Positions 361 through 55,659 of a stretch of 64,000 nt of DNA are shown piece after piece. The stretch's first letter is position 1. Each line of letters begins with the position of its first letter. The notes under the pieces were generated by a model that saw only the letters and a list, made by a program, of their open reading frames with translations, made no database searches and had not been told where the DNA came from. Source of the stretch: Candidatus Obscuribacteraceae bacterium (lineage in GTDB: Bacteria; Cyanobacteriota; Vampirovibrionia; Obscuribacterales; Obscuribacteraceae); contig JBGAHS010000005.1 of assembly GCA_044226015.1 (NCBI GenBank), forward strand, positions 608,001-672,000, in the 5' to 3' direction. Both the position numbers and the translations under genes were made by a program.

Positions 361-392
361 TCACGTGATTTTCACAATGGTGAAATTACGAT
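361..392 (+). promoter_or_regulatory. TCAC-N7-TCAC-N11-(-10) promoter upstream of ORF 440
   Basis: tcac gtgattt tcac aatggtgaaat TACGAT; same geometry as 8 other copies in the window. Confidence 0.7.
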
Positions 393-439: not shown

Positions 440-1189
440 ATGACAGCAGATAGAACACACCCGAATGACTTCAATAAAATTTCCGAGAAGCATGGAAAAG
501 CAGAAGGTGAATCGGTACATCAAAAATTACTAGCTGATTCCACACCAAACCCAAATCAATTTACTAAAGGCCAAGAAAATAGAAATGATGCGAATGCCGC
601 TGTGAAAGCGCAGGGATTTCCAGATTTGCAATTGCATGATTCATCAAAAAATAGTGACGCTAAGAAAGATCATCCAAAGGATGGTCATACCGATCCTAAA
701 GACAGTGCGACCACGCCGAAGGATAGCGCTGGGAACGGCGGTAAAGATTCCGCTGCTAATGGACAATCGCACAAGGGCAGTGAATCCACTCGTAATCAGG
801 AATCAATAAAAAACGCCCCGGAAGCGAAGGGTGGTAATGAGCGTATAAAAAACGCACCTCACTCAGATAATTCAAAGGCTGAATTTGAGCAGAGTCCAAA
901 GGATTCAAATGGAAATCAGCATAAAGACTCTGGCAAATCTGGCGATAAGCTGATGGGAGCCAGCCAGACTCCAGCTGCCGGAGTAACAACCAATCTCGAT
1001 GGAAGTACAAGTGTGGTTGGAAAGGATTCACCAAACTCCTCTCAGACAGCGCCTGGCGAGAACAAACCTGATTTTGGGCAAGCACAGCAAAAGGAAAAGC
1101 CAAATCAAACCAACAACTCTGATGCTGCACATGGTGGCAAAACAGACAGCTCAGCTGATCGACATGGATTAGCAAAGGGCAAAGACTAA
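440..1189 (+). CDS. Hypothetical low-complexity hydrophilic protein (KDS repeats)
   Basis: 249-aa ORF with strong SD (AGGAG) upstream and a hairpin downstream. Confidence 0.75.
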   Translation: MTADRTHPNDFNKISEKHGKAEGESVHQKLLADSTPNPNQFTKGQENRNDANAAVKAQGFPDLQLHDSSKNSDAKKDHPKDGHTDPKDSATTPKDSAGNGGKDSAANGQSHKGSESTRNQESIKNAPEAKGGNERIKNAPHSDNSKAEFEQSPKDSNGNQHKDSGKSGDKLMGASQTPAAGVTTNLDGSTSVVGKDSPNSSQTAPGENKPDFGQAQQKEKPNQTNNSDAAHGGKTDSSADRHGLAKGKD

Positions 1190-1216
1190 ACAGAAAGTTT
1201 AACCGGGTCGCTGGTA

Positions 1217-1277
1217 TCAGAGGGCACGCTAGAGGAATGGACAGATTCCTTTTGCTTTGCCCTCTGAGCGCTTTTTC
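1217..1277 (+). terminator. Hairpin/terminator after ORF 440
   Basis: tcagagggca...aggaat-loop-attcct...tgccctctga, with a T-run shortly after. Confidence 0.45.
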
Positions 1278-1538
1278 AGGAGCCAATTCAATATTTCTAT
1301 TCTTATAGAGAATGCTTGGTCTGAACGATTCTGCTTCGATATCAGTTTTAAGGGGACGGTTTGATGATAGCGATACACGATTATGTCTGGAGCCTCAGGC
1401 TGAAGGACTATGTTCGCAAGAGCAGGGCTGCAAGAGAAGGTTGGAAGTGCAGGGTTGTAAGATCAACGTTGCAAGAACTGGGTTGCAAGAGCAGGGCTGG
1501 GTGATCAAGTCAGTAATTTGGATCGTATATACAGATTG

Positions 1539-1694
1539 TCACGGTCTTTTCATTCGAAGCTTAGTATTCTAGCTTGTGTTGAACGACAAGAACGCATCAG
1601 TCCGAACTGAGCCTAAGTTCAAAAAGATTTTCCTCAAGCAACCAACCAACACCTCATAGAGACAGACTTCTGCCAAGTCTGTCTTTATGATTTT
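1539..1694 (+). ncRNA. Sibling sRNA unit 1 (promoter + about 120-nt RNA + terminator)
   Basis: tcac-N7-tcat-N11-TATTCT; core CCTCAAGCAACCAACCAA at 1632; hairpin tcatagagacagactt/aagtctgtctttatga followed by TTTT. Confidence 0.65.
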
Positions 1695-1739
1695 GTGCAT
1701 GACAATAGAGTAAGAATGCAGAATTGAACATGCCAAAAC

Positions 1740-1935
1740 TCACGCATTTTTCACCTAGCCAAAACTACTCTATAAACACAATCCCTTCCAAAACAAATTC
1801 CCCAAGAATGACTTTTGAATGATTCCTTCAGCCAGGAGGCGAGCCACATAATCCAAATCCCTTAACTTTTACCTCAAGCAACCAACCAAAAACTTCATAA
1901 GGACAGATCACTGCCAGGTCTGTCCTTTTGAATTT
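1740..1935 (+). ncRNA. Sibling sRNA unit 2
   Basis: tcac-N7-tcac-N11-TACTCT; TAATCCAAATCCCTTAACTTTT; core at 1872; hairpin aaggacagatc/ggtctgtcctt. Confidence 0.65.
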
Positions 1936-1992
1936 GGTTTTCTCGATTGTTTGAACTGTTTTGAAAGACTGTGTTGTAATACATATGTTTGT

Positions 1993-2185
1993 TCACGCCG
2001 TTTTCACACCCAAATGACTATTCTGTTTTTGTTGATAGTTTTTCTGGTTCACCGGAAGAGCGCTGCGGAAAACCAAATACGGTGCAAGACGCGGACGCTC
2101 AACTTCAACAAGATTTTTCCTCAAGCAACCAACCAAACCAACAGCATAGGGACAGACTCTGCCAGGTCTGTCCCTATGTTTGTTA
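1993..2185 (+). ncRNA. Sibling sRNA unit 3
   Basis: tcac-N7-tcac-N11-TATTCT; core at 2119; hairpin catagggacagac/gtctgtccctatg. Confidence 0.65.
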
Positions 2186-2226
2186 TACCTGTGGTCCTTA
2201 TTTCTGCGTCTGATGAATCTCCATCC

Positions 2227-2361
2227 GTCGGATTCGCGTCTGTCGGATTCGCGTCTGTCGGATTCGCGTCTGTCGGATTCGCGTCTGCCGGATTCGCGTC
2301 TGTCGGTTGGCGTCTGTCGGTTGGCGTCTGTCGGATTGGCATTTGTCGGATTGGCGTCTGT
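2227..2361. repeat. Tandem repeat, 15-bp unit GTCGGATTCGCGTCT (about 5 good copies, then degenerate)
   Basis: Direct inspection. Confidence 0.9.
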
Positions 2362-2484
2362 TGAATCTGCGCTTTTATCCTGGAGCGCAAGCTTCTATCT
2401 GTAGTTGGTCAAACACATTTTCTGAATGCACAGAGATCTGCTTGAATCTAGAATAAGAAACTGTGCGAATCCACTGCTGGTGAG

Positions 2485-2695
2485 TCACGGCTTTTTCACA
2501 GCGAGTTGATTAGTCTATAACTGTTGAACGTTTCCCCTGTTCAATACCAATGCTCTCCCTTAACGAACCTAAGCCTAATCCAATTCACAAGCACCCTCGG
2601 AGGCTCTGAACCGTAATCCAAATCCTTTAACTTTTACCTCAAGCAACCAACCAAACTCAAAGGACAGACTCTGCCAGGTCTGTCCTTTTGATTTT
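2485..2695 (+). ncRNA. Sibling sRNA unit 4
   Basis: tcac-N7-tcac-N11-TAGTCT; 5' hairpin ttgaac-gtttcccct-gttcaa; core at 2637; hairpin aaggacagac/gtctgtcctt followed by a T-run. Confidence 0.7.
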
Positions 2696-2742
2696 GCTGC
2701 GACCCTCTTGCTGTCGCTTGCTTATACTCTAAGGGTAAGACC

Positions 2743-2775
2743 TCTTCTTCTTCTTCTTCTTCTTCTTCTTCTTCT
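2743..2775. repeat. (TCT)n microsatellite, about 11 units
   Basis: Direct inspection. Confidence 0.9.
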
Positions 2776-2950
2776 CTTTCTATTTCTACGCTGTTCTGTT
2801 TTGGCGGCTTAAGAGGGTTTTGGATACATCGTAATCGGAAGCTATCGGGAATTGTAAGAGAGATAGTGCCATATATGGTATCACTGTATATATGATTTGG
2901 TTGGGGATTTGGTTTCTGAGAAAACACTGTGTGAATCCACTGCTGGTGAG

Positions 2951-3157
2951 TCACGGCTTTTTCACAGCGAGTTGATTAGTCTATAACTGTTGAACGTTTC
3001 CCCTGTTCAATATCAATGCTCTCCCTTAACGAACCTAAGCCTAATCCAATTCACAAGCACTCGGAGGCTCTGAACCATAATCCAAATCCTTTAACTTTTA
3101 CCTCAAGCAACCAACCAAACTCAAAGGACAGACTCTGCCAGGTCTGTCCTTTTGATT
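2951..3157 (+). ncRNA. Sibling sRNA unit 5 (near-identical recent duplicate of unit 4)
   Basis: 2927-3157 is almost identical to 2461-2693; core at 3101. Confidence 0.7.
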
Positions 3158-3231
3158 GGTATGAAGGTCGCTGTAGCACTGGTTTTGTGATCATTAGCTG
3201 CATGCAACTGTAGGAATCTACCGATGTAGAA

Positions 3232-3433
3232 TCACAGTTATTTCACAGCAGGCGGACTACTATAATCTCAATTGAACTATCCCCTGTTCAATCCTAAAGC
3301 TCTCCCTTAACAATTTGAGCTATTCCGAGATAAATACCTACTTTGGAGGTCTCTGCTTATAACCTAACCCTAATCCAAATCCCTTAACTTTAACTCAATC
3401 AAGGATGGACTTCTGCAGAGTCCGTCCTTTTTT
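3232..3433 (+). ncRNA. Sibling sRNA unit 6 (divergent; lacks the CAACCAACC core)
   Basis: tcac-N7-tcac-N11-TACTAT; ttgaac-tatcccct-gttcaa; TAATCCAAATCCCTTAACTTT; hairpin aaggatggac/gtccgtcctt followed by a T-run. Confidence 0.6.
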
Positions 3434-3572
3434 GATTGTGAGCGATCTCAGGTCACATTGCGAAAAGACGTTGAGTGATCTGCTTAAGGACTGGCTTCTC
3501 AGGCGTCGATTGAAAGGTCTACAAAAATGTGCTCGATTGCAGATGAAACTGCACTATTCCACCCTAGAGGTG

Positions 3573-3604
3573 TCACAGCGTTTTCACCCCAGAAGAATTA
3601 GTTT
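3573..3604 (+). promoter_or_regulatory. TCAC-N7-TCAC-N11-(-10) promoter upstream of ORF 3673
   Basis: tcac agcgttt tcac cccagaagaat TAGTTT. Confidence 0.65.
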
Positions 3605-3672
3605 ATTAGCATAAACATCATCGCTTTCTATTCATTTGTTTCACGCAACCCCATATATAGGTCCAAACTGTC

Positions 3673-4137
3673 ATGTTCAAACCAGCCATAGATATCGACC
3701 CAGTTGCGCTGAGAAGCGTCAACATCGCCGCTGCGCCACTACCACCAGTGGCAACAGTTCCACCAGCAAATATTCAATCCAAAGTCCAGGAAAAAGAACT
3801 CGCAAGACAGCTCACTGAGAGACTAGTCGAAGAACTGAAGGATGAACTCATCAATGCTTCAATTGGTGAATCCATTCAGATTCATATTCCGCCCCTGGAT
3901 AACAACTTCGGTTGCCTCACTAAGGTCAAATTTATAGGACGTGCCAACGCTTCTAAATCTGACATGACTACACTTCCAGATTTGAAGAAATTTCAGGATG
4001 AGATTCTCTATCCTGATATCTGTATGGCCCGTTCCGGTAGCGTCATTCCTGAGTGGAAATCTCTCAAATTTTTGATTGGAACCGAAAAGTATGCCGTTGT
4101 GATGATGTGCTTTGTTGGAATTAAGCGCTCAGCTTAG
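3673..4137 (+). CDS. Hypothetical protein
   Basis: 154-aa ORF with protein-like composition, preceded by the box promoter. Confidence 0.6.
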   Translation: MFKPAIDIDPVALRSVNIAAAPLPPVATVPPANIQSKVQEKELARQLTERLVEELKDELINASIGESIQIHIPPLDNNFGCLTKVKFIGRANASKSDMTTLPDLKKFQDEILYPDICMARSGSVIPEWKSLKFLIGTEKYAVVMMCFVGIKRSA

Positions 4138-5222
4138 TTTCGTGCTTGCTTGAATAAGTAGTGCGATACAATCCATTCTTCACCTTGTCTGTAGCCCCAG
4201 AGTTCAGCGCATGCCAGAAAGAACAAGCGCCAATATATCCACCAACGTTTTGCCTGAGCCTCGCCATAAGTGTCAGCTAGAATGGGAAGAATTCGTTCCC
4301 TGTTAGAACTCATGTTCTCAAGCCAGGCTTCTGCGGTTTTCTGATAATGCTTGCCGTTAACTTTCCAATCCTTTTCGATTTTCAAGTCCTTGTTGAAGTG
4401 AGATAACAGATCATGTGATGGCATGGTTCCGCCCGTGAAAAAGTACTTCGTGAGCCAGTCGTTCTGGTCAGAGCTGTCGAAATGGTATGGATGTTCCACG
4501 TGTGTAAAAATATGCACAAATAGCTTGCCATCAGCTTTGAGCCAGCATGAAAGTGTTTGCAATAGTCTCTCGTAGTTTTTCATGTGTTCGAACATTTCGA
4601 CCGATACTATTCTGTCGAAGCGTTCATTTTCCCCGAAGAATGACTCGGTAAGCTCGGCGACGTTCCTGGTTAGTACGGTCAGGTTCCTTATTCCTCTTAA
4701 TTCAGCTCGACGCATGATACTTTCACGCTGGCTGTTTGAATTGGAAATCGCTATAAAAGTCGAACCAGGGTATTTGGCAGCAGCGAAGAGTGAGAAAGCT
4801 CCCCAACCGCACCCGAGGTCGAGCACCCGTTGTCCGTCGTTAATTTGGGCACGCTCACACGTCTCGGCAAGCATTCTGTTTTCAGCTGAATCTAAACTGT
4901 CGTTGTCTTGCCAAAGTGCACAGCTGTATTTCATGTTAGAGCCGAGTATCATTTCATAGAAGGAAGCTGGCACCTCGTAGTGTTGTTTATTTGCTGAATC
5001 GGTAGACACTGCCACTGGTGAATGTCTCAGTTCTTCAACAAAGTCTCTTTTCCTTTGTGCCGGGTTACCGCTACCGAGTTCACGCGTCTTTTGTGCCAGC
5101 ATGTTTCGAATGCCAAGTCTCACGACGAATTCTGGCACCAAGCCTGTCGCAATAAAGTCATAGAGGGCAATATTGCTTTTTGAGTCTTCACAGTATTTTC
5201 TGTTCAATGTGCTGCTGGTCAT
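4134..5222 (-). CDS. SAM-dependent methyltransferase, cyclopropane-fatty-acid synthase-like
   Basis: ANKQHYE, MKYSCALW, VLDLGCGWG and SVEMFEHM motifs. Confidence 0.9.
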   Translation of the reverse strand: MTSSTLNRKYCEDSKSNIALYDFIATGLVPEFVVRLGIRNMLAQKTRELGSGNPAQRKRDFVEELRHSPVAVSTDSANKQHYEVPASFYEMILGSNMKYSCALWQDNDSLDSAENRMLAETCERAQINDGQRVLDLGCGWGAFSLFAAAKYPGSTFIAISNSNSQRESIMRRAELRGIRNLTVLTRNVAELTESFFGENERFDRIVSVEMFEHMKNYERLLQTLSCWLKADGKLFVHIFTHVEHPYHFDSSDQNDWLTKYFFTGGTMPSHDLLSHFNKDLKIEKDWKVNGKHYQKTAEAWLENMSSNRERILPILADTYGEAQAKRWWIYWRLFFLACAELWGYRQGEEWIVSHYLFKQARN

Positions 5223-6007
5223 GTTGTTCTCCTGAACCAGGGAATGAATACCGAGGTTCTTTTTTGATAGTCTGCATAATCTGATCGCGTTTTAACTGAA
5301 TGTTCTTCGGAGGGTTTAACGCCTGTTACGTTGAAGAGCAAATGTAAGAGTGTTAGAGACGAGCTCACTGAGAGGACGCCCCACGGCGAACCGAGCGCGT
5401 AAATAGTGAACGAGCTCGCAGCTAACCATTCAAAAAAGTAGTTTGGATGGCGCGAGTAGTACCATAATCCTGTTTGGCATGTTTTACCTTTGTTGGCTGT
5501 GTTTTTCGAAAATTCGGCTAATTGCTGATCTGAAATTGCTTCACACGTCATTGAAATGAGCCAGATGGATGCAGCGATCCAGTGAAGAGCATCAATTGCT
5601 TGTTCATGGTCAGTCACTACAAATGCAAATGGTGCAGACATAAGGCATAGAATGAGTCCCTGCCAGAGGAATATGACTAGCAGCTTTATGCCATTCTTGT
5701 CTTCGCCCATCTGCCTCTTCAACTCGGTGTATCTTGCGTCTTCTTCAGGATAATGGCGCAAAAATCTGTTAGTGAGATGCCAGGTGAGGCGAAGACTAGA
5801 AACTACAACCATTGTTGCCAGTAGCAGTTGCCGCCCACCAGTGTTTCCTGAACAAAGCAAGTAAAGCACAACGAGAATTGTTGACCCGAACGCCCACGAT
5901 AAATCAACGATTCCCGCATTTCGAATTCGCTGTGCAATAAACCATGTGAGAGTCATGAAACCCGCACTGCAGCCTAATCCTATTGCCAGTATCAAGAATG
6001 CATTCAT
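5219..6007 (-). CDS. DUF1295 / steroid 5-alpha-reductase-like membrane protein
   Basis: NAGIVDLSW, EDARY, GLWYYSRHPNYFFEW; multiple TM segments. Confidence 0.9.
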   Translation of the reverse strand: MNAFLILAIGLGCSAGFMTLTWFIAQRIRNAGIVDLSWAFGSTILVVLYLLCSGNTGGRQLLLATMVVVSSLRLTWHLTNRFLRHYPEEDARYTELKRQMGEDKNGIKLLVIFLWQGLILCLMSAPFAFVVTDHEQAIDALHWIAASIWLISMTCEAISDQQLAEFSKNTANKGKTCQTGLWYYSRHPNYFFEWLAASSFTIYALGSPWGVLSVSSSLTLLHLLFNVTGVKPSEEHSVKTRSDYADYQKRTSVFIPWFRRTT

Positions 6008-7311
6008 TCAACCAGTTCCGAACTCAGCTCATAATTATTGGGACGCGAGTACAAAGACTGAACTACTGAGATGTTTCGCATATGAAAAGCTGCCTGGCAA
6101 TATTCGAAGTAATAATTCCATTTGCGCTTGAATTTGTCATCGAAGCCCATCGCTTTGATATGTTGCCACTCACGATTGAAATTTCTATCCCACAGCTTTA
6201 GAGTGGCTACATACGAGTCAGTCATGTCAAAAACATCAATTGGGAACAGGTCTCCACACTTTTGCATAGCACCTGAGACGCGGCGTAGCGAAGGAAGTAG
6301 TGAACCCGGAAAAATATGTTTTTGAATAAAGTCGACGTTGCGCTTCAAAGTTTCGTATCGCGAATCTGGGCAGGTGATCATCTGCAGGAGTACCAGACCA
6401 TGGGGTTTAAGAACTGAATCGATTGTGGAGATGTACTTGTCCATATACTCGTCACCAACAGCTTCGATCATTTCTATGGATACGACTTTATCAAAGCTAC
6501 CTTTGAGGTCTCGGTAATCGAGTAATTTCAGGTCGATGCGGTCTTCTAGCCCTGCGGCTCTCACTCTGCGTTGGGCATATTCGAGTTGCGCTTCTGATAT
6601 TGTTATTCCGGTGATACGGCACCCATATTTAGACGCTGCATGAACTGCAAATGCGCCCCATCCGCAGCCAATCTCAAGGACGTGATCCTTTGAGTTGAGC
6701 CGCAACTTCTTGCAAATGCGATCGAATTTGGCGTATTGAGCTGTTTCCAAATCCTGATTTCCTGATTCGAATAGGGCTGAGGAATAGGTCATCGAAGGGT
6801 CTAATATTTTGTTGAAAAAATTGTTTCCCAGGTCGTAGTGCTCGTATATGTTAATGCGACTGTTTTTGACTGAGTTATTTCTAGCCACGTGAGCCAGGCG
6901 ATTAAATGCACCTAGTAAATTGAATGCGATTCCAGATTTCTTTGACTCGGTCATAACAGGTGAGTTGTCTGTGTTTATGAGAAACCAGGAGATGACGTCC
7001 CTGATGCTACTAATCTGGCATAGTCCGTCCAGATAAGATTCTGCTAGCCCTAAATCTGCATAAAGCAAGCAGCGTTCAAAGAACTCATCGTTGAAAATTT
7101 CAATTGTTGGCGTTTCTTTGAATATAGATTCTGACGGTTGGGCTTGCCCAAAGACAAGTGACTCACCATCTGGAGTGATGATTCGCAGCCGATCGCGCCT
7201 TAATTGTCTTAAGAGCGAAATGATGATGCTTTTTGCCTGGCGTCTAATAAAGCTGGAAAATGCGCTTCCTGGCTGTGTCGGAATTGTGTGGTTCAGGTTT
7301 GATATCATCAT
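6004..7311 (-). CDS. cfa: Cyclopropane-fatty-acyl-phospholipid synthase family methyltransferase (Cfa/UfaM-like)
   Basis: HYDLGN, MTYSSA, LEIGCGWG, SIEMIEAVG, IFPGSLLP. Confidence 0.9.
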   Translation of the reverse strand: MMISNLNHTIPTQPGSAFSSFIRRQAKSIIISLLRQLRRDRLRIITPDGESLVFGQAQPSESIFKETPTIEIFNDEFFERCLLYADLGLAESYLDGLCQISSIRDVISWFLINTDNSPVMTESKKSGIAFNLLGAFNRLAHVARNNSVKNSRINIYEHYDLGNNFFNKILDPSMTYSSALFESGNQDLETAQYAKFDRICKKLRLNSKDHVLEIGCGWGAFAVHAASKYGCRITGITISEAQLEYAQRRVRAAGLEDRIDLKLLDYRDLKGSFDKVVSIEMIEAVGDEYMDKYISTIDSVLKPHGLVLLQMITCPDSRYETLKRNVDFIQKHIFPGSLLPSLRRVSGAMQKCGDLFPIDVFDMTDSYVATLKLWDRNFNREWQHIKAMGFDDKFKRKWNYYFEYCQAAFHMRNISVVQSLYSRPNNYELSSELVE

Positions 7312-8349
7312 TTACTCGCTTTGAATTGGTCTTGGATTTAGAACATTCGTTTGTAATTCTGGATGCTCTTCTTTTCTATGAAAAGGTATGCGCTTAAGCC
7401 ATAAAATCGCTGCATGAAGGTGGATCAAAAAAATGACATTTATTGTGCAGAGAGGATTAGCCAGTGCAAGTTTTAAGATACTTTTATCGCTGAATTCGTG
7501 TCGCTCTCCTGCGATGTAGCCAGCCATGATGAGCTTTTGAGCGTCATCAGCTAGCTCTGTGGTGCTTATTTGAATAGCTAAGTGCTTGCCGGGAATGCCG
7601 ACCTTGAAGTCGAAGAATTGGTCCAATTCCGTAAATGGAGAGACGTAGAAATACTTTTTCTGTACATCGCAAAAGAAGTCAGCTTTTAAGTCGCGAAGAA
7701 GATACATTTTTCTCTCATGGAATGTATTCTCTACTTCGACGATGCAGCAAATTAGCTTTTGATGAGAGTCAAAGCAATAAAAGCAAGAGATGGGATTGAA
7801 CACATAGTTAAAGTTTCGAACATTGCATAGCAGAGCCACTCTTTCAATTTGCTCCTCAACTCCCTGGTCTTGCAAATAACCCCGCACTCTTTCAAGTAAG
7901 GAGCTTGGTGCCTCCTGGCTGTTTTGCCAGTCTAGGTTCTCGCTATTGCTGTTGGCTGAGACTTGGAGCTTCTCTCTGTCAATGCGATTGGCCGCTGGTT
8001 TGTTTTTACTAAGCGCTACAGGGCAGCTTTTGCCTGAGTCATTGTCGTCGTTTCGTTCTGTATTTTTTTGTTCTGTATTGTGTGGTTCTTTATTGTTTTG
8101 ATCTCTCAAGGGAAAATGATCTGATTCCAGGAAGCGAAAAATCCTTTGCTGCTCAGTGCCAAATAATGAAGTGGCTAACTCTAATTCCGACAGTTCATCC
8201 AACCAGAGGTAGAACATGAAATGAGAGAGTGAAAATTCATGCTTTTTCGGGGTGAAGCGTCGGTGTTTAATAGAACATTTGTACAGGCAGGAGTCAAATC
8301 GCCTTACCTTGTTCCTATTCCTCTCTGCTGCTGTTAAAGCCTGAATCAT
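7312..8349 (-). CDS. DUF1365 family protein (UfaO-like) with a low-complexity insertion
   Basis: HRRF.PK.H.F, YVFNPISCFY, EVENTF.E, FYVSPF, IHLHA..LW.K. Confidence 0.9.
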   Translation of the reverse strand: MIQALTAAERNRNKVRRFDSCLYKCSIKHRRFTPKKHEFSLSHFMFYLWLDELSELELATSLFGTEQQRIFRFLESDHFPLRDQNNKEPHNTEQKNTERNDDNDSGKSCPVALSKNKPAANRIDREKLQVSANSNSENLDWQNSQEAPSSLLERVRGYLQDQGVEEQIERVALLCNVRNFNYVFNPISCFYCFDSHQKLICCIVEVENTFHERKMYLLRDLKADFFCDVQKKYFYVSPFTELDQFFDFKVGIPGKHLAIQISTTELADDAQKLIMAGYIAGERHEFSDKSILKLALANPLCTINVIFLIHLHAAILWLKRIPFHRKEEHPELQTNVLNPRPIQSE

Positions 8350-9611
8350 ACTAAAATACCAGTTTTACTCAGAATTCTAGTCACAGCTAGCGAGGAATTG
8401 AGAGCGTCTTCGTGAAAACCATAGGTGAAGTAGCTTCCGCAAAAATAGATGTTTCCACTGTTCTCATTGAGCTTATGCAGTGACTTTTGGGCTTCGACAG
8501 CTTCCAGGGTGAAGATTGGATGATGGAAGTCGAAGCTGTTCAGCACCGCAGATGGAGCAATAATATTCTGACTATTCAGCGAAACAAAATAGTCCTTTTT
8601 CTTTGACACGCCCTGCAGCGAATTCATCCAGTAGTGGGTTGTGGCAGTGTGACCGTCTTGCTCAATACGATAGTTCCATGATGACCAACAACGGTTGCAC
8701 TCAGGCATCACACTAGTGTCTGTGTGGACTATGGCATTGTTTAACTGGTATTTGAATTTTGAAAGCAATGTGTGCTCGATTTCACGTGGCTGGTCTAAAA
8801 TTGAAAGGGCTTCGTCGGCATGGCATGCAAATATCACCTTATCAAATTCAAAGTTATCGCCTTCTTTTGTGCGTATCTGCACCTTGTTGTTGGATGCCCT
8901 GCTAACTCGTTCTACTGCAGAGTGAATCTTTCTGCTGCTGTTCGGCAGTTTGCTTTCGATCTTCTTCACGTACTCGCGTGCGCCACCTTCCACCGTCCAC
9001 CACTGATGCTGAGTCTTCTGACCCAGAAAACCATGATTATGGAAAAAGCGAAGTAGGCTGTTTGCAGGAAAGTCTATGATCTTCGAGGGCGGAGTTGACC
9101 AAACCGCACTACTCATTGGAACGAGATAGAAATCTAGTAAGTCTTGACCATAACCTCTCGAAAGAACGTACTCCCTGAGAGACATCGCTTTGAATGACTC
9201 CGCATCGATGGACGGTACTGCATCTTTATTGAATTGATCAAGCGCAAAGAGCATTTTCCAGAATCGCAAATTCACTAAGTTGCGTCGGTCTGCGAACAGC
9301 CGATTGAAACTTGCGCCTGAATATTCCAGGTTGAAACGCTTTTGCTGAACACTGAAAGACATATCAGTCCTTTTTGTTGCTACATCTAGTTCTGCAAACA
9401 ATTTTGTAAGGTTTGGATATGTGACGTGGTTAAAGACCATAAAGCCTGTGTCTAATGACACAGACTTTCCATCTTCCGCAAAATCGAGAGTCCTGGTGTG
9501 ACCACCGACATAATTGTTCTTTTCGAAAATGGTTATTTCATACTGGTCCCTCAGGTAGTATGCTGCGGAGAGCCCGGCTATCCCACTACCCACTATGGCG
9601 AGTTTCTTCAT
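8346..9611 (-). CDS. FAD-dependent oxidoreductase, amine oxidase family (UfaD-like)
   Basis: Start MKKLAIVGSGIAG at 9611 overlaps the desaturase stop (ATGA); GGHT, DTGFMVFN..TYP, YGFHED. Confidence 0.9.
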   Translation of the reverse strand: MKKLAIVGSGIAGLSAAYYLRDQYEITIFEKNNYVGGHTRTLDFAEDGKSVSLDTGFMVFNHVTYPNLTKLFAELDVATKRTDMSFSVQQKRFNLEYSGASFNRLFADRRNLVNLRFWKMLFALDQFNKDAVPSIDAESFKAMSLREYVLSRGYGQDLLDFYLVPMSSAVWSTPPSKIIDFPANSLLRFFHNHGFLGQKTQHQWWTVEGGAREYVKKIESKLPNSSRKIHSAVERVSRASNNKVQIRTKEGDNFEFDKVIFACHADEALSILDQPREIEHTLLSKFKYQLNNAIVHTDTSVMPECNRCWSSWNYRIEQDGHTATTHYWMNSLQGVSKKKDYFVSLNSQNIIAPSAVLNSFDFHHPIFTLEAVEAQKSLHKLNENSGNIYFCGSYFTYGFHEDALNSSLAVTRILSKTGILV

Positions 9612-10603
9612 GTTCGGTTCCTCGAATATGTCTGAACCGCCTGTGGTGCTAGCTCGGTTTGAGCATTTTCTAAAGCCTTTTGTGGAGCATGTTTGAGATC
9701 CCAAATGATGCCTAGTTTGTTTAATATCACCAGTGCATAGTAAGTAAAATCAATTTCCCACCAGTAAAAGCCCTGTCTCACACTATTTCGGTAGAAGTGA
9801 TGATTGTTGTGCCAGCCTTCACCGAGCGTGATCAAAGCACAGAGAAAATTATTTCGACTGTTGTCATTAGTCTTGTATCTTCGACTTCCCCAGAGGTGGC
9901 AGATGCTGTTGATGCTTGAAGTCGCATGAAACAGAAGAACCGTGCTGATAAAGAAACCCCAGACTAGTAATTGTGGTCCCGAAGTATGCAAGTCGGGGCG
10001 ATAAAGTTGTAGGAGCTGACCAGTCCCGAGCAACCCTACTGCCAGTAACAATGGCATAAGCCAGTCAAACCTATTCAGAAATCGCAGCTCTGGAAATTTC
10101 TCGAAGTCCTTAATCCTTGAGTAGTCGGTAGGCATGTTCTGGGAGGAAGTGATCCATCCTATATGAGCCCAGAGGAAGTCGCGCGAGATGGGGGAATGTA
10201 TATCTCCTTCTTCATCAGATTCGGCATGATGTTTGCGATGATGAGCAGCCCACCACAACGGTCCTCTCTGAACTGAACAGAGTCCAATCACCGCAAATAT
10301 GAATTGAGCGACTCGCGAAGTCTTGAATGTTCTGTGTGAGAAATAGCGATGATAAAAACCTGTGATGGCGAACATGCGCACCAAATATAGTGAAAAGCAA
10401 GTTGCCACGTCGAACCATGATACTGGCATCGCCAGAGCTGCCAGACAACTCAAATGCAAGAAAGCAAATGGTATCCATCTGTCTGGCTCAGGTTCAGGGC
10501 GTACAACCTTCTCCGGAGATTTTTTCTCAGTATCTGAATCAAGCCACGCAAAAAAGGTATTAGCCTTAGTATTCTCAGAGGCAGCTTTCATTTTATACCG
10601 CAT
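9608..10603 (-). CDS. Membrane fatty acid (acyl-CoA, delta-9-like) desaturase
   Basis: His boxes HRYFSH, HRKHH and HNNHH. Confidence 0.92.
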   Translation of the reverse strand: MRYKMKAASENTKANTFFAWLDSDTEKKSPEKVVRPEPEPDRWIPFAFLHLSCLAALAMPVSWFDVATCFSLYLVRMFAITGFYHRYFSHRTFKTSRVAQFIFAVIGLCSVQRGPLWWAAHHRKHHAESDEEGDIHSPISRDFLWAHIGWITSSQNMPTDYSRIKDFEKFPELRFLNRFDWLMPLLLAVGLLGTGQLLQLYRPDLHTSGPQLLVWGFFISTVLLFHATSSINSICHLWGSRRYKTNDNSRNNFLCALITLGEGWHNNHHFYRNSVRQGFYWWEIDFTYYALVILNKLGIIWDLKHAPQKALENAQTELAPQAVQTYSRNRT

Positions 10604-10742: not shown

Positions 10743-12755
10743 ATGGAGACCGACAGAATGATTGATAATCCCGACTCGAGAAGTGTGAATCGCAGTTCTG
10801 CGGAAGAAAGGTTCAGTAGTCTGCACGAGGATGCGTATTCGTCGGAGAAAGGAAACGGCCTTCAATCGTCTCGAAGTGTTAGCACTGGTAAATTGGCTCA
10901 GAATGAACCGGAATTTCAAATTGAAGTTGTGCGGCATCGTCGTCCTGATAACGATGGCGAGAATCACCAGTACCGTAATTACCAGTACCGTAATTACCAG
11001 TACCGTCGTGATGATTATGATGGCGAATATAACCAGTATCGTCATCCTTATGAAAGGAGCGATAGGCATCGATTAAGTAATAGTTATGACTACAGGCAAT
11101 ATGGTGATTTGTCTGCTCCAGTAGAGAAACCTGGCTTCTTTTCAGAGGCATGGCATGCTGGTTTGCGCTCTCTTGTTCAATCACCTCTCGATAATGCTGC
11201 ACAACTTGTCGATAATACTGTGGGCAAGTTTCTTGACACCCATCTTTACGACAAAACAAAAGAATTGATTGTAGCCAACAATAAAGCAGATGTGGAAGTC
11301 GGCTCAGCGGCATGGCACGGAAGAATGGTTGGTGATGTGGTAGGAATGCTTCCGTGGATGCTTCTTGCTAATAAAGTTGTTCGTGGATCATTAGGAAGTT
11401 TCGAGGCAAGCAAAGGGCTGATCTCATCAGGCGAGGCTCTTGGACAGGCTACGTTCCGTCAGTCTTTTACTGAAGGTGCGCTAACTGGAGCCACTTATAC
11501 CGGACTATTTAGCTCTGAATCAGACAACGAGAACTTCTGGTCTTCGAAAGCAAAGCATACGGCATTAGGTGCTGGAATGATGGGAACATTTGGTGCATTC
11601 AATAACGGTATTCTGCAGCGTATGGCCGAGCGCAATTTGAGCGGCACAGCTTCAAGAATGTTTGCTGGTGCTCTGTCTGCTCTTCCGGGTGCTGCTGTTG
11701 AGACTGGGCTGGACCATATGTTGTATGAGCGCAATACTGATCTGGTATCAGATTTCAAAGTTAATCTGTATAAGGACGCTTTGATTGGGGCTGGCTTTAA
11801 TGGACTGTCTCGTTTTGAGAATGCTGCTGATAGAGTGCGCGCGGCAGAAAAAGTTGATCTTAAACCACTAGAGGCACCTACAACAATTGCAGAGATGCCT
11901 GAAGGCTCGGTTGGATGGACCCCAAGTTGGGCTTTGAAGACTGGACCAAAGAATACACTCTGGATTTCATCAGATGCGGTTGCAGGCACTGAATTCAATG
12001 CATCTCCGGCCCTCTCTAATACCCTAAGGGTTATAAGAACAGAGAATGGTGGCATTGCTGTAGATATGGCTAAGATGGCTGATCCATCACATGCAATTAC
12101 GTGGCGAAATTCATCGGACCCCAAGGGAGAAGGATTCTTGCCGGTAGGACTTGCAATGCATCCTAAGGGCGTTTTTCCATTTGAAGGAAACCAGGCTCGT
12201 TTGCCGGCTGGCTATGGTGAAAATATAAAACCGGACCTTACTCCGCGGACCTTCTCTGATTCCAGACCTGCCCCAGCAGACAGAGCCCAAAGCCCAGGTT
12301 CTTCACCGCCCTCTTCAAGTTCTGGCTGGGGACTTTTTGAACATTTTCTGTTCTGGAATTGGATTAGTGGTGGCAGTAGCCACATACATAATCAAACAAC
12401 TTATAACCTGGGCGGTACTGATTCAAGTTTCACCAGCAATTCTGATGTTGCCGGTGCTGCGCCAGGTACTGGGCTCTTCGGTGGATGGGGCGCCGATCGC
12501 AGCTGGGGTGGCGACAACGCCCAGCAAGGTACCGCCGGTGGTGATACCACTGGTCAAGGCTGGGGCGCTACGCTAGGCTGGGGCGACAGCAATGGTGCTC
12601 AAACCTTCGGAGGCGACGATGGTTATCGAAGTGGAGGCGACGATGGCTACCGAGGTGGAGGTGAGCAGCAGTTTGACCAACCTGCATACGACCCGCCAGC
12701 ATATGACCCGCCAGCGTATGATCCCGCACCAGACATCACTAGCTACGACGTCTAG
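10743..12755 (+). CDS. Hypothetical protein with Gly/Ala-rich amphipathic helices and a Gly-rich tail ending in YDPPA repeats (start may be ATG 10758)
   Basis: 670-aa ORF; GGAG SD precedes ATG 10758. Confidence 0.8.
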   Translation: METDRMIDNPDSRSVNRSSAEERFSSLHEDAYSSEKGNGLQSSRSVSTGKLAQNEPEFQIEVVRHRRPDNDGENHQYRNYQYRNYQYRRDDYDGEYNQYRHPYERSDRHRLSNSYDYRQYGDLSAPVEKPGFFSEAWHAGLRSLVQSPLDNAAQLVDNTVGKFLDTHLYDKTKELIVANNKADVEVGSAAWHGRMVGDVVGMLPWMLLANKVVRGSLGSFEASKGLISSGEALGQATFRQSFTEGALTGATYTGLFSSESDNENFWSSKAKHTALGAGMMGTFGAFNNGILQRMAERNLSGTASRMFAGALSALPGAAVETGLDHMLYERNTDLVSDFKVNLYKDALIGAGFNGLSRFENAADRVRAAEKVDLKPLEAPTTIAEMPEGSVGWTPSWALKTGPKNTLWISSDAVAGTEFNASPALSNTLRVIRTENGGIAVDMAKMADPSHAITWRNSSDPKGEGFLPVGLAMHPKGVFPFEGNQARLPAGYGENIKPDLTPRTFSDSRPAPADRAQSPGSSPPSSSSGWGLFEHFLFWNWISGGSSHIHNQTTYNLGGTDSSFTSNSDVAGAAPGTGLFGGWGADRSWGGDNAQQGTAGGDTTGQGWGATLGWGDSNGAQTFGGDDGYRSGGDDGYRGGGEQQFDQPAYDPPAYDPPAYDPAPDITSYDV

Positions 12756-55585: not shown

Positions 55586-55659
55586 GCCCTGGTAGTTCAG
55601 TTGGATAGAACACCTCCGTCCTAAGGAGGGTGTCGGGAGTTCGAGTCTCTCCCAGGGTG
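55586..55659 (+). tRNA. tRNA-Arg (CCT)
   Basis: Cloverleaf: acceptor gccctgg/ccagggt, D stem gttc/gaac, anticodon stem cctcc/ggagg with CCT at 55620-55622, T loop ttcgagt; CCA not encoded. Confidence 0.92.

Follow-up and report, generated by a model that had tools for sequence, protein, structure and literature searches.

A tandem array of six predicted sibling small RNAs beside an OmpR/PhoB-type regulator gene in a Candidatus Obscuribacteraceae genome

The Candidatus Obscuribacteraceae genome studied here (assembly GCA_044226015.1; G000 below, other G numbers being relatives) comprises 8.19 Mb in 13 contigs, with a G+C content of 47% and a completeness of 92%. The window, that is, the whole stretch of 64,000 nucleotides that was analysed (C8:608001-672000), contains close to its beginning a 1.9-kb gap (1539-3436) occupied by six head-to-tail units, all on the + strand, which we call u1 to u6 in their 5' to 3' order (Table 1). 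All of them follow a single plan, namely a TCAC-N6-TTCAY direct repeat (the box), an 11-nt spacer, a TAnnnT hexamer in the place of a -10 element, a G-poor body and a hairpin followed by a T-run. A first-pass annotation, made from the sequence alone, had described these as six self-contained promoter-RNA-terminator units, and its sequence claims were all found in place. The body sequences have diverged among units to ca. 60% identity. Units u4 and u5 form a tandem duplication (97–99% identical, with a period of 464–466 nt and a 2-nt deletion in the u5 body), and u5 is a recent duplicate of u4. Simple tandem repeats are also found between and before the units, at 2203-2386 (at least nine copies of the 15-nt unit TTCGCGTCTGTCGGA, which has GTCTGTC in common with the terminator 3' arm), at 1416-1499 (four copies of GCAAGAGCAGGGCTG, in units of 14–15 nt) and as a TCT run at ca. 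2740-2775. These repeats may be the mark of replication slippage in a fast-evolving region.

Table 1. Array units and other features of the window (window positions unless a contig is named; ORF, open reading frame).
Feature	Span	Strand	Box	-10 hexamer	Predicted start	Other elements	Terminator	Predicted RNA (nt)
u1	1539..1697	+	1539-1553	TATTCT 1565-1570	~1577	18-nt motif 1632-1649	1654-1690 + T-run	~121
u2	1740..1935	+	1740-1754	TACTCT 1766-1771	~1778	TAATCCAAATCCCTTAACTTT 1849-1869; 18-nt motif 1872-1889	1899-1927	~158
u3	1993..2186	+	1993-2007	TATTCT 2019-2024	~2031	structured 5' domain; 18-nt motif 2119-2136	2145-2178	~156
u4	2485..2696	+	2485-2499	TAGTCT 2511-2516	~2523	5' hairpin 2523-2545, loop UUUCCCC; GCUCUCCCUUAAC 2552-2564; second motif 2614-2634; 18-nt motif 2637-2654	2659-2688	~174
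u5	2951..3160	+	from 2951		~2989	u4 elements, shifted	3123-3152	~172
u6	3232..3436	+	3232-3246	TACTAT 3258-3263	~3270	5' hairpin loop UAUCCCCU; GCUCUCCCUUAAC 3299-3311; second motif 3371-3391; 18-nt motif absent	3401-3429, compensated stem	~167
OmpR/PhoB-type response regulator, 225 aa	2..244 (5' part); complete C8:607567-608244	-				Response_reg + Trans_reg_C
Box promoter + ORF, 249 aa	ORF 440-1189	+	361-375	387-392		low-complexity
Box promoter + ORF, 154 aa	ORF 3673-4137	+	3573-3587	3599-3604
Ninth promoter of the class	10700	+				ahead of 670-aa ORF 10743-12755; no Pfam family

In the window, the box pattern TCACRNNNNTTTCAY occurs eight times, always on the + strand and always between 361 and 3587, against an expectation of 0.32 and a maximum of two per shuffle among 100 shuffles. 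Six of the eight boxes head the units, where they read TCACGGTCTTTTCAT, TCACGCATTTTTCAC, TCACGCCGTTTTCAC, TCACGGCTTTTTCAC (two units) and TCACAGTTATTTCAC, and the remaining two head ORFs. A TAnnnT hexamer follows exactly 11 nt past the box at all eight sites, so the common promoter geometry reported in the first-pass annotation holds as TCAC-N6-TTCAY, N11, TAnnnT in 6/6 units, and this fixed distance leads to the same six transcription starts that it had predicted. Throughout the 8.19-Mb genome the complete pattern TCAC-N6-TTCAY-N11-TAnnnT was detected at 35 sites, compared to 2 in the reversed control, and when the spacing was varied over 9, 10, 11, 12, and 13 nt the counts were 0, 8, 35, 4, and 0. 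Nine of the 35 sites fall in the window and six of these nine have no ORF behind them, while the other members of the class are mostly located 5–55 nt ahead of an ORF start and, given this closeness, look like working promoters. The pattern is thus a real promoter class. It is also present in the relatives G002, G006, G007, G013, and G017, with 8–24 sites (reversed controls 0–3), and represents a family-wide regulon signature.

At the other end of the units, hairpins of ca. 10–16 pairs followed by a T-run close every one of them, and 12 terminator-like sites were found where 3.7 were expected. For the hairpins of u3 and u5 (2145-2178 and 3123-3152) the scan returned the - strand only, and the + strand form was taken from the sequence, the folds and the model matches. 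The first-pass annotation had pointed to changes in these hairpins that preserve pairing. In the stems of the six paralogues, aligned and then refitted to a covariance model (R1, representing the 3' module of the units) in a way that favours structure, pairing holds in 98.5% of 66 cells, and double-sided changes are seen in 3 of the 11 pairs, a number reached in only 3 of 500 shuffles. Seven cells are G-U pairs, which become mismatches if the stems are read on the opposite strand. The units as a whole fold better than their shuffled versions, with z-scores between -2.2 and -6.4 (the lowest corresponding to u3), and their bodies contain only 13–21% G.

Between promoter and terminator, the units share a small set of motifs in the arrangement that the first-pass annotation had outlined. 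CCTCAAGCAACCAACCAA, its invariant motif ahead of the hairpin, is exact in five units; this 18-nt CA-rich motif (the 18-mer) is the sole element invariant in five units and is absent from u6. TAATCCAAATCCYTTAACTTT (repeat family D7) was confirmed in four. Four units (u1, u4, u5, and u6) have the TTGAAC...GTTCAA stem, and its loop is C-rich in the last three. There, the 5' end consists of an 8-pair hairpin with the loop UUUCCCC or UAUCCCCU, followed by an unpaired stretch made up of GCUCUCCCUUAAC, a variable spacer that includes a single GGAGG, and UAAUCCAAAUCCYUUAACUUU, after which the 18-mer stands directly before the terminator in u4 and u5, although not in u6. Unit u2 has its 3' half in common with u4–u6, and u1 and u3 possess other 5' domains, with UUUUCCUCAAGCAACCAACCAA and the terminator kept. 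Motifs of the UCCC/CUCCC type are found in the u4–u6 hairpin loop and in the unpaired CUCUCCCUUAAC; AAUCCCUUAAC occurs in u2 and u6, and u1 and u3 have UUCCUCAAG only.

The region does contain short ORFs, for instance one of 30 aa at 2524-2616 and one of 65 aa at 3016-3213, and the units could be imagined to encode small proteins. This is extremely improbable. No ORF is common to the units and none of at least 12 codons in any unit has an upstream Shine-Dalgarno motif; the frames differ, and the 2-nt indel between the near-identical u4 and u5 shifts the frame and breaks the longest one. Besides, the u5 ORF extends through the terminator, and the ORFs that overlap the region (the longest of 137, 106, 89, 69, and 65 aa) gave no Pfam match above the cut-off. 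All this agrees with the earlier view that the region holds no credible ORF or conserved peptide.

Divergent from the first box-driven ORF, and directly upstream of it, lies the gene for the 225-aa OmpR/PhoB-type response regulator, with a gene for an 846-aa histidine kinase ca. 0.6 kb past it. Tandem half-sites with an 11-bp period, placed next to a -10 element and replacing the -35, are the classic layout of the OmpR/PhoB family, and the shared box appears to have the form of such a response-regulator site. When box promoters within 10 kb were counted at the 39 OmpR-type loci, the array-side regulator had eight and the next two loci 3 and 2. In the relative G007, 10 of the 17 class sites are found on a 51-kb contig together with a 61%-identical orthologue of the regulator, and what lies behind these sites are genes for small proteins instead of RNA-like units. 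The adjacent regulator is, as far as we can infer, the best candidate activator of the array. Regulators of this kind are numerous, with 39–50 OmpR-type genes in G000 and in each of the five relatives named above. The closest paralogue of the array-side regulator, at C6:236550-237218, is 49% identical to it. Every NCBIfam equivalog model scored the 225-aa protein under its cut-off, RppA being the best (193.5 bits for a cut-off of 250), with PhoB at 176 for 296 and CreB at 171.4 for 273; the top models are cyanobacterial ones. The cre/blr tag recognised by CreB is given as TTCAC-N6-TTCAC in the source consulted (PMC13214185), and the array box matches it in words and spacing, a likeness confined to the DNA site. 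Unlike in the CreBC/BlrAB systems, the array-side regulator is not a CreB equivalog, an identity that we rejected on the score just given. We know of no sRNA (small RNA) array in the CreBC/BlrAB regulon. As for the two-component control suggested in the first-pass annotation, the response-regulator-like box and the adjoining OmpR/PhoB-type gene are both there, and this regulator is predicted to bind the box.

Eight boxes within 3.3 kb beside a regulator gene might also act mainly at the DNA level, as a bank of promoters and terminators that titrates the regulator or as a device setting read-through into the ORF at 3673-4137, the RNAs themselves having no function in trans. All units point towards this ORF, which has a box as well, the number of units differs between assemblies (see below), and read-through between tandem siblings is known from PrrF1/PrrF2, which yields PrrH, according to the account in PMC4211561. 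We regard such a cis role as quite unlikely, since the ORF has a complete promoter of its own, the motifs distant from the promoter change little or not at all from one unit to the next even where the remaining sequence has diverged, and each unit carries its 10–16-pair hairpin and T-run on the + strand.

Overall, we interpret the six tandem units as separate sibling sRNAs of ca. 121–174 nt that are likely co-induced by an OmpR/PhoB-type regulator through the box, and we assign to this reading a probability of roughly 0.6. The box would stand in for the -35 element and would be bound by a phosphorylated dimer of the regulator encoded beside the array, with the histidine kinase ca. 0.6 kb beyond, so that a signal would be converted into a burst of sibling trans-acting sRNAs. 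Their exposed C-rich stretches (the hairpin loop UUUCCCC/UAUCCCCU, CUCUCCCUUAAC, AAUCCYUUAAC, and (U/A)CCUCAAGCAACCAACCAA) would, as the likeliest mode of action, pair with mRNAs at their purine-rich ribosome-binding regions and block translation in the manner of LhrC, and the multiple copies would provide dosage together with slightly different target ranges. Pairing with mRNAs as the mode of action is proposed by analogy and tentatively, at a little under even odds. In the target scans, which set k-mer seeds and motif-only duplexes against crude translation-start regions, the commonest 8-mer matches were to UUUUCCUCAAG, the complement of GAGGAAAA. The best single site, GGUUGUUUGAGG-CGU-AUG, is the ribosome-binding site of an uncharacterised 189-aa ORF on contig C1, where 14 pairs, including one G-U, end 3 nt ahead of the AUG; the protein has a hydrophobic N-terminal stretch. 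For the 18-mer, the highest-ranking 'target' turned out to be the antisense strand of another array, on contig C11 (see below), an artefact of the crude gene calls, and was discarded.

Several results weigh against this interpretation. Window DNA was found in 18 runs from 13 studies and none of the 18 is an RNA run. The 1.9-kb array gave no BLAST match in any of 40 relatives, and the search of related genomes with a covariance model that the first-pass annotation had proposed came back empty, with no match at E <= 0.01 in 60 other genomes of the family (searched with stricter filters) and nothing real in five genomes of the genus, where the best E values were 0.077 and 0.94, the former corresponding to an ordinary gene terminator. 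Hence, in ca. 70 genomes of the family and class we found no RNA relative and no between-species covariation, and the covariation described above comes from six paralogues on a model-fitted alignment. Regarding targets, when the motifs were paired with 6316 crude start regions, their duplex energies were similar to those obtained with shuffled motifs. With up to 2 mismatches allowed and the arrays themselves left aside, the complement of the 18-mer occurs at 2 sites, compared to 3 in the control, and there was no target enrichment among 25 box-driven genes. The anti-Shine-Dalgarno action suggested earlier is backed by the presence of CU-rich, LhrC-like motifs but not by any genome-wide signal in these scans. 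The regulator, for its part, was assigned by adjacency, five other OmpR-type loci have 1–3 boxes nearby, and its gene, as read from the sequence, lacks a box of its own in the host genome. Across ten relatives the box counts do not track a close orthologue of the regulator: 2 sites accompany a 65% orthologue in G004, and 24 sites a best match of only 55% in G017, and in G002, which has a 64% orthologue, not one of the 15 sites is near that gene. With these rival loci and untracked counts, the choice of regulator stays at the level of inference.

The absence of a convincing mRNA target set in the scans would also fit a different role, in which the RNAs are made but serve as a sponge or decoy, their single-stranded 18-mer sequestering an RNA-binding protein or another RNA. 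Sponge RNAs such as CrcZ or RsmY/Z work on the principle of displaying one motif many times, and here the 18-mer is precisely the one element that does not vary in five units. What keeps this explanation alive is the array at C11:44441-44811, which contains three tandem units of ca. 100 nt, each with a 13–15-pair hairpin whose loop of 26–27 nt holds CCUCAAACAACCUACCAA, equivalent to the 18-mer with 2 mismatches, bringing the displayed copies to eight in total. By eye these units show a promoter-like TTGACC...TAAGGT pair, although the consensus scan found none; no counterpart of the C11 array turned up in 40 relatives. Its third unit is followed by a strong terminator-like hairpin. On the protein side, an 87-aa ORF at C7:624641-624775 reaches 25.6 bits with the Hfq model of Pfam, below the cut-off of 27, and may be a divergent Hfq. 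We nevertheless find the sponge role rather unlikely: a CsrA gene was not found in the 92%-complete genome and each RNA has at most one GGA-type motif, u6 lacks the 18-mer while retaining the other motifs, the 18-mer as read from the sequence is not a clean A-R-N repeat, and no candidate binding protein emerged. An extension of the same idea, which we judge unlikely, is a two-locus system with eight single-stranded CCUCAARCAACCWACCAA copies, five of them signal-controlled and three seemingly constitutive, that would titrate an RNA-binding protein or a master RNA. If true, such an inducible-plus-basal sponge circuit would have no described counterpart.

With regard to distribution, Rfam 15 at its gathering scores gave no match in the window except for a tRNA (55586-55659), and at E <= 10 the region 1200-3700 gave four weak eukaryotic or archaeal matches of 16–21 bits, for cut-offs of 45–83. 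Membership of LhrC, csRNA, OmrA-B or any other Rfam 15 family was rejected, as the gathering scores were not reached, in line with the first-pass annotation, which had not recognised the family. Within the host genome the units are confined to one locus. The covariance model has six matches, all in the array; with blastn-short, 38 of the 39 matches of the six units are inside the array and the other is a chance match of 18 nt; and the 18-mer, with up to 2 mismatches allowed, was found eight times, of which five belong to this array and the other three to the one on C11. A dispersed repeat of the MITE (miniature inverted-repeat transposable element) or REP (repetitive extragenic palindrome) type, or a scatter over the genome, which the first-pass annotation had named as evidence to look for against it, is excluded because no unit copies exist elsewhere in the genome. 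Exact 17-mer scans returned 61 loci in genome contigs and at least 119 in metagenome contigs, which are unrelated (by our own arithmetic, ca. 70 chance matches are expected in 596 Gb); in the 141 loci inspected, neither the box nor the second motif was present, and a single locus matched the hairpin pattern by chance.

The bacterium, which is uncultured, occurs in sludge and bioreactor metagenomes. Two of the 18 runs, one from activated sludge and one from a bioreactor, hold at least half of the sampled words, the share of the others being small. Contigs from other studies (X2 and X5) contain the array at 99% identity or more, and X2, X4, and X5 all have a C at position 1553, which turns the u1 box into TTCAC. 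One X2 contig joins 2613 to 3078 and has one of the two u4/u5 copies; it is either a form with five units or a product of the assembly, which would have collapsed the duplicate. X4 shows diverged versions of u2 and u4. The seven differences listed for its u4-like contig (depth 3.8, so that single differences may be errors) spare the box, the -10 hexamer, the 5' hairpin, the 18-mer and the terminator, and one of them changes UCCUUU to UCCCUU, as in u2 and u6. Considering the recent u4/u5 duplication and the fact that no relative was found in other species, the array appears to be evolutionarily young, and the family seems to be restricted to one species and one locus and, going by Rfam 15 only, to be uncatalogued.

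A sequence found in one species only, and flanked and interleaved by the simple repeats described above, might instead be decaying duplicated DNA, for example remnants of a promoter and leader, that serves no function today and may not even be transcribed. We think this very unlikely. The exact 11-nt spacing, the TAnnnT hexamer and a paired terminator persist in 6/6 units despite a body identity of ca. 60%, and the compensated changes in the stems argue for selection.

Read as sibling sRNAs, the units are best described as an analogue, in architecture and likely in logic, of LhrC, the csRNAs and OmrA/B, while belonging to none of them; the likeness to csRNAs and LhrC drawn in the first-pass annotation extends to architecture but not to family membership, there being no Rfam match. 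LhrC1-5 of Listeria monocytogenes are described as LisRK-dependent multicopy sRNAs, poor in G; three redundant sites of the CUCCC/UCCC type, located in a loop, in a single-stranded stretch and in the terminator loop, bind the lapB Shine-Dalgarno region (PMC4132741). From that description the array resembles them in its multicopy siblings, low G content, and CU-rich motifs in a 5' hairpin loop and a single strand, and also in its two-component dependence, here only predicted. It differs in its longer units (121–174 nt), its additional invariant CA-rich 18-mer, a different regulator box and terminator loops without UCCC, and it has no sequence or Rfam relation to LhrC. The streptococcal csRNAs are reported to depend on CiaRH, to number two to six per genome, some in tandem, to be among the genes most strongly controlled by CiaR, and to act near the Shine-Dalgarno sequence or AUG of their targets (PMC4507080, PMC4211561). 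They share with the array the presence of several similar siblings arranged in tandem. Unlike the array, which is known from one species, they are conserved throughout a genus and constitute another sequence family. The CiaR promoter repeat differs from the TCAC-N6-TTCAY box. OmrA and OmrB are under EnvZ-OmpR control. In enterobacteria they are tandem siblings in two copies, of 82–88 nt and Hfq-dependent, according to PMC4211561. The array is similar to that pair in its tandem siblings with conserved ends and divergent middles and in the OmpR-family regulator predicted for it, and is dissimilar, on the features given there, in its six copies and unrelated sequence.

Outside the array, the promoter class covers a varied set of genes. 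The 249-aa and 154-aa ORFs driven by the two remaining boxes have no Pfam or NCBIfam family, and a Protein Atlas search with the 154-aa protein (3673-4137) gave no usable match. The ninth promoter of the window bounds the far side of a lipid-modification cluster that adjoins the array (4134-10603, - strand) and includes two cyclopropane-fatty-acid-synthase-like genes, DUF1295, DUF1365, an amine oxidase and a fatty-acid desaturase. When the 26 ORFs behind boxes elsewhere in the genome were profiled against Pfam, 14 had no family; those with one included an M4 thermolysin-like peptidase, a GH25 lysozyme and an LprI-type lysozyme inhibitor, together with an MFS transporter, a GNAT protein, an amine oxidase, a helix-turn-helix protein, a paralogous regulator and GTP cyclohydrolase I. 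A Pho regulon was rejected because no phosphate-starvation genes were present among the box-driven ORFs scanned. On contig C9 (34500-40300, - strand) two box promoters are followed by terminators only ca. 45 and 65 nt on, and given these short distances the class may drive other small RNAs, the two pairs perhaps being extra mini-sRNAs of the same regulon. A run of repeats of ca. 40 nt (GATCGGATCCCC...CACAGTAAG) lies downstream of one of the two. At C12:399494-399900 a box is located ahead of two tandem, near-identical ORFs of ca. 43 aa with hydrophobic, Cys-containing tails (...FACVCKTVLG).

Systems of this kind are familiar, and the value of the present one is in the detail and not in the principle. 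If the RNAs are made, the array would add an sRNA family that had not been catalogued before, and would offer a clear example of a regulator that, in one species, has a local regulon made up mostly of RNA genes, while in other species of the genus a related regulator controls small protein genes instead. It would also provide a snapshot of the birth of sibling sRNAs, with a recent duplication, a possible five-unit form in another assembly and no counterpart found in other species of the genus. The promoter class, with ca. 35 sites in this genome and further ones in several relatives, offers a ready regulon map for an uncultured group, which takes in a thermolysin-like protease, a GH25 lysozyme, a lysozyme-inhibitor-like protein and many proteins without a family.

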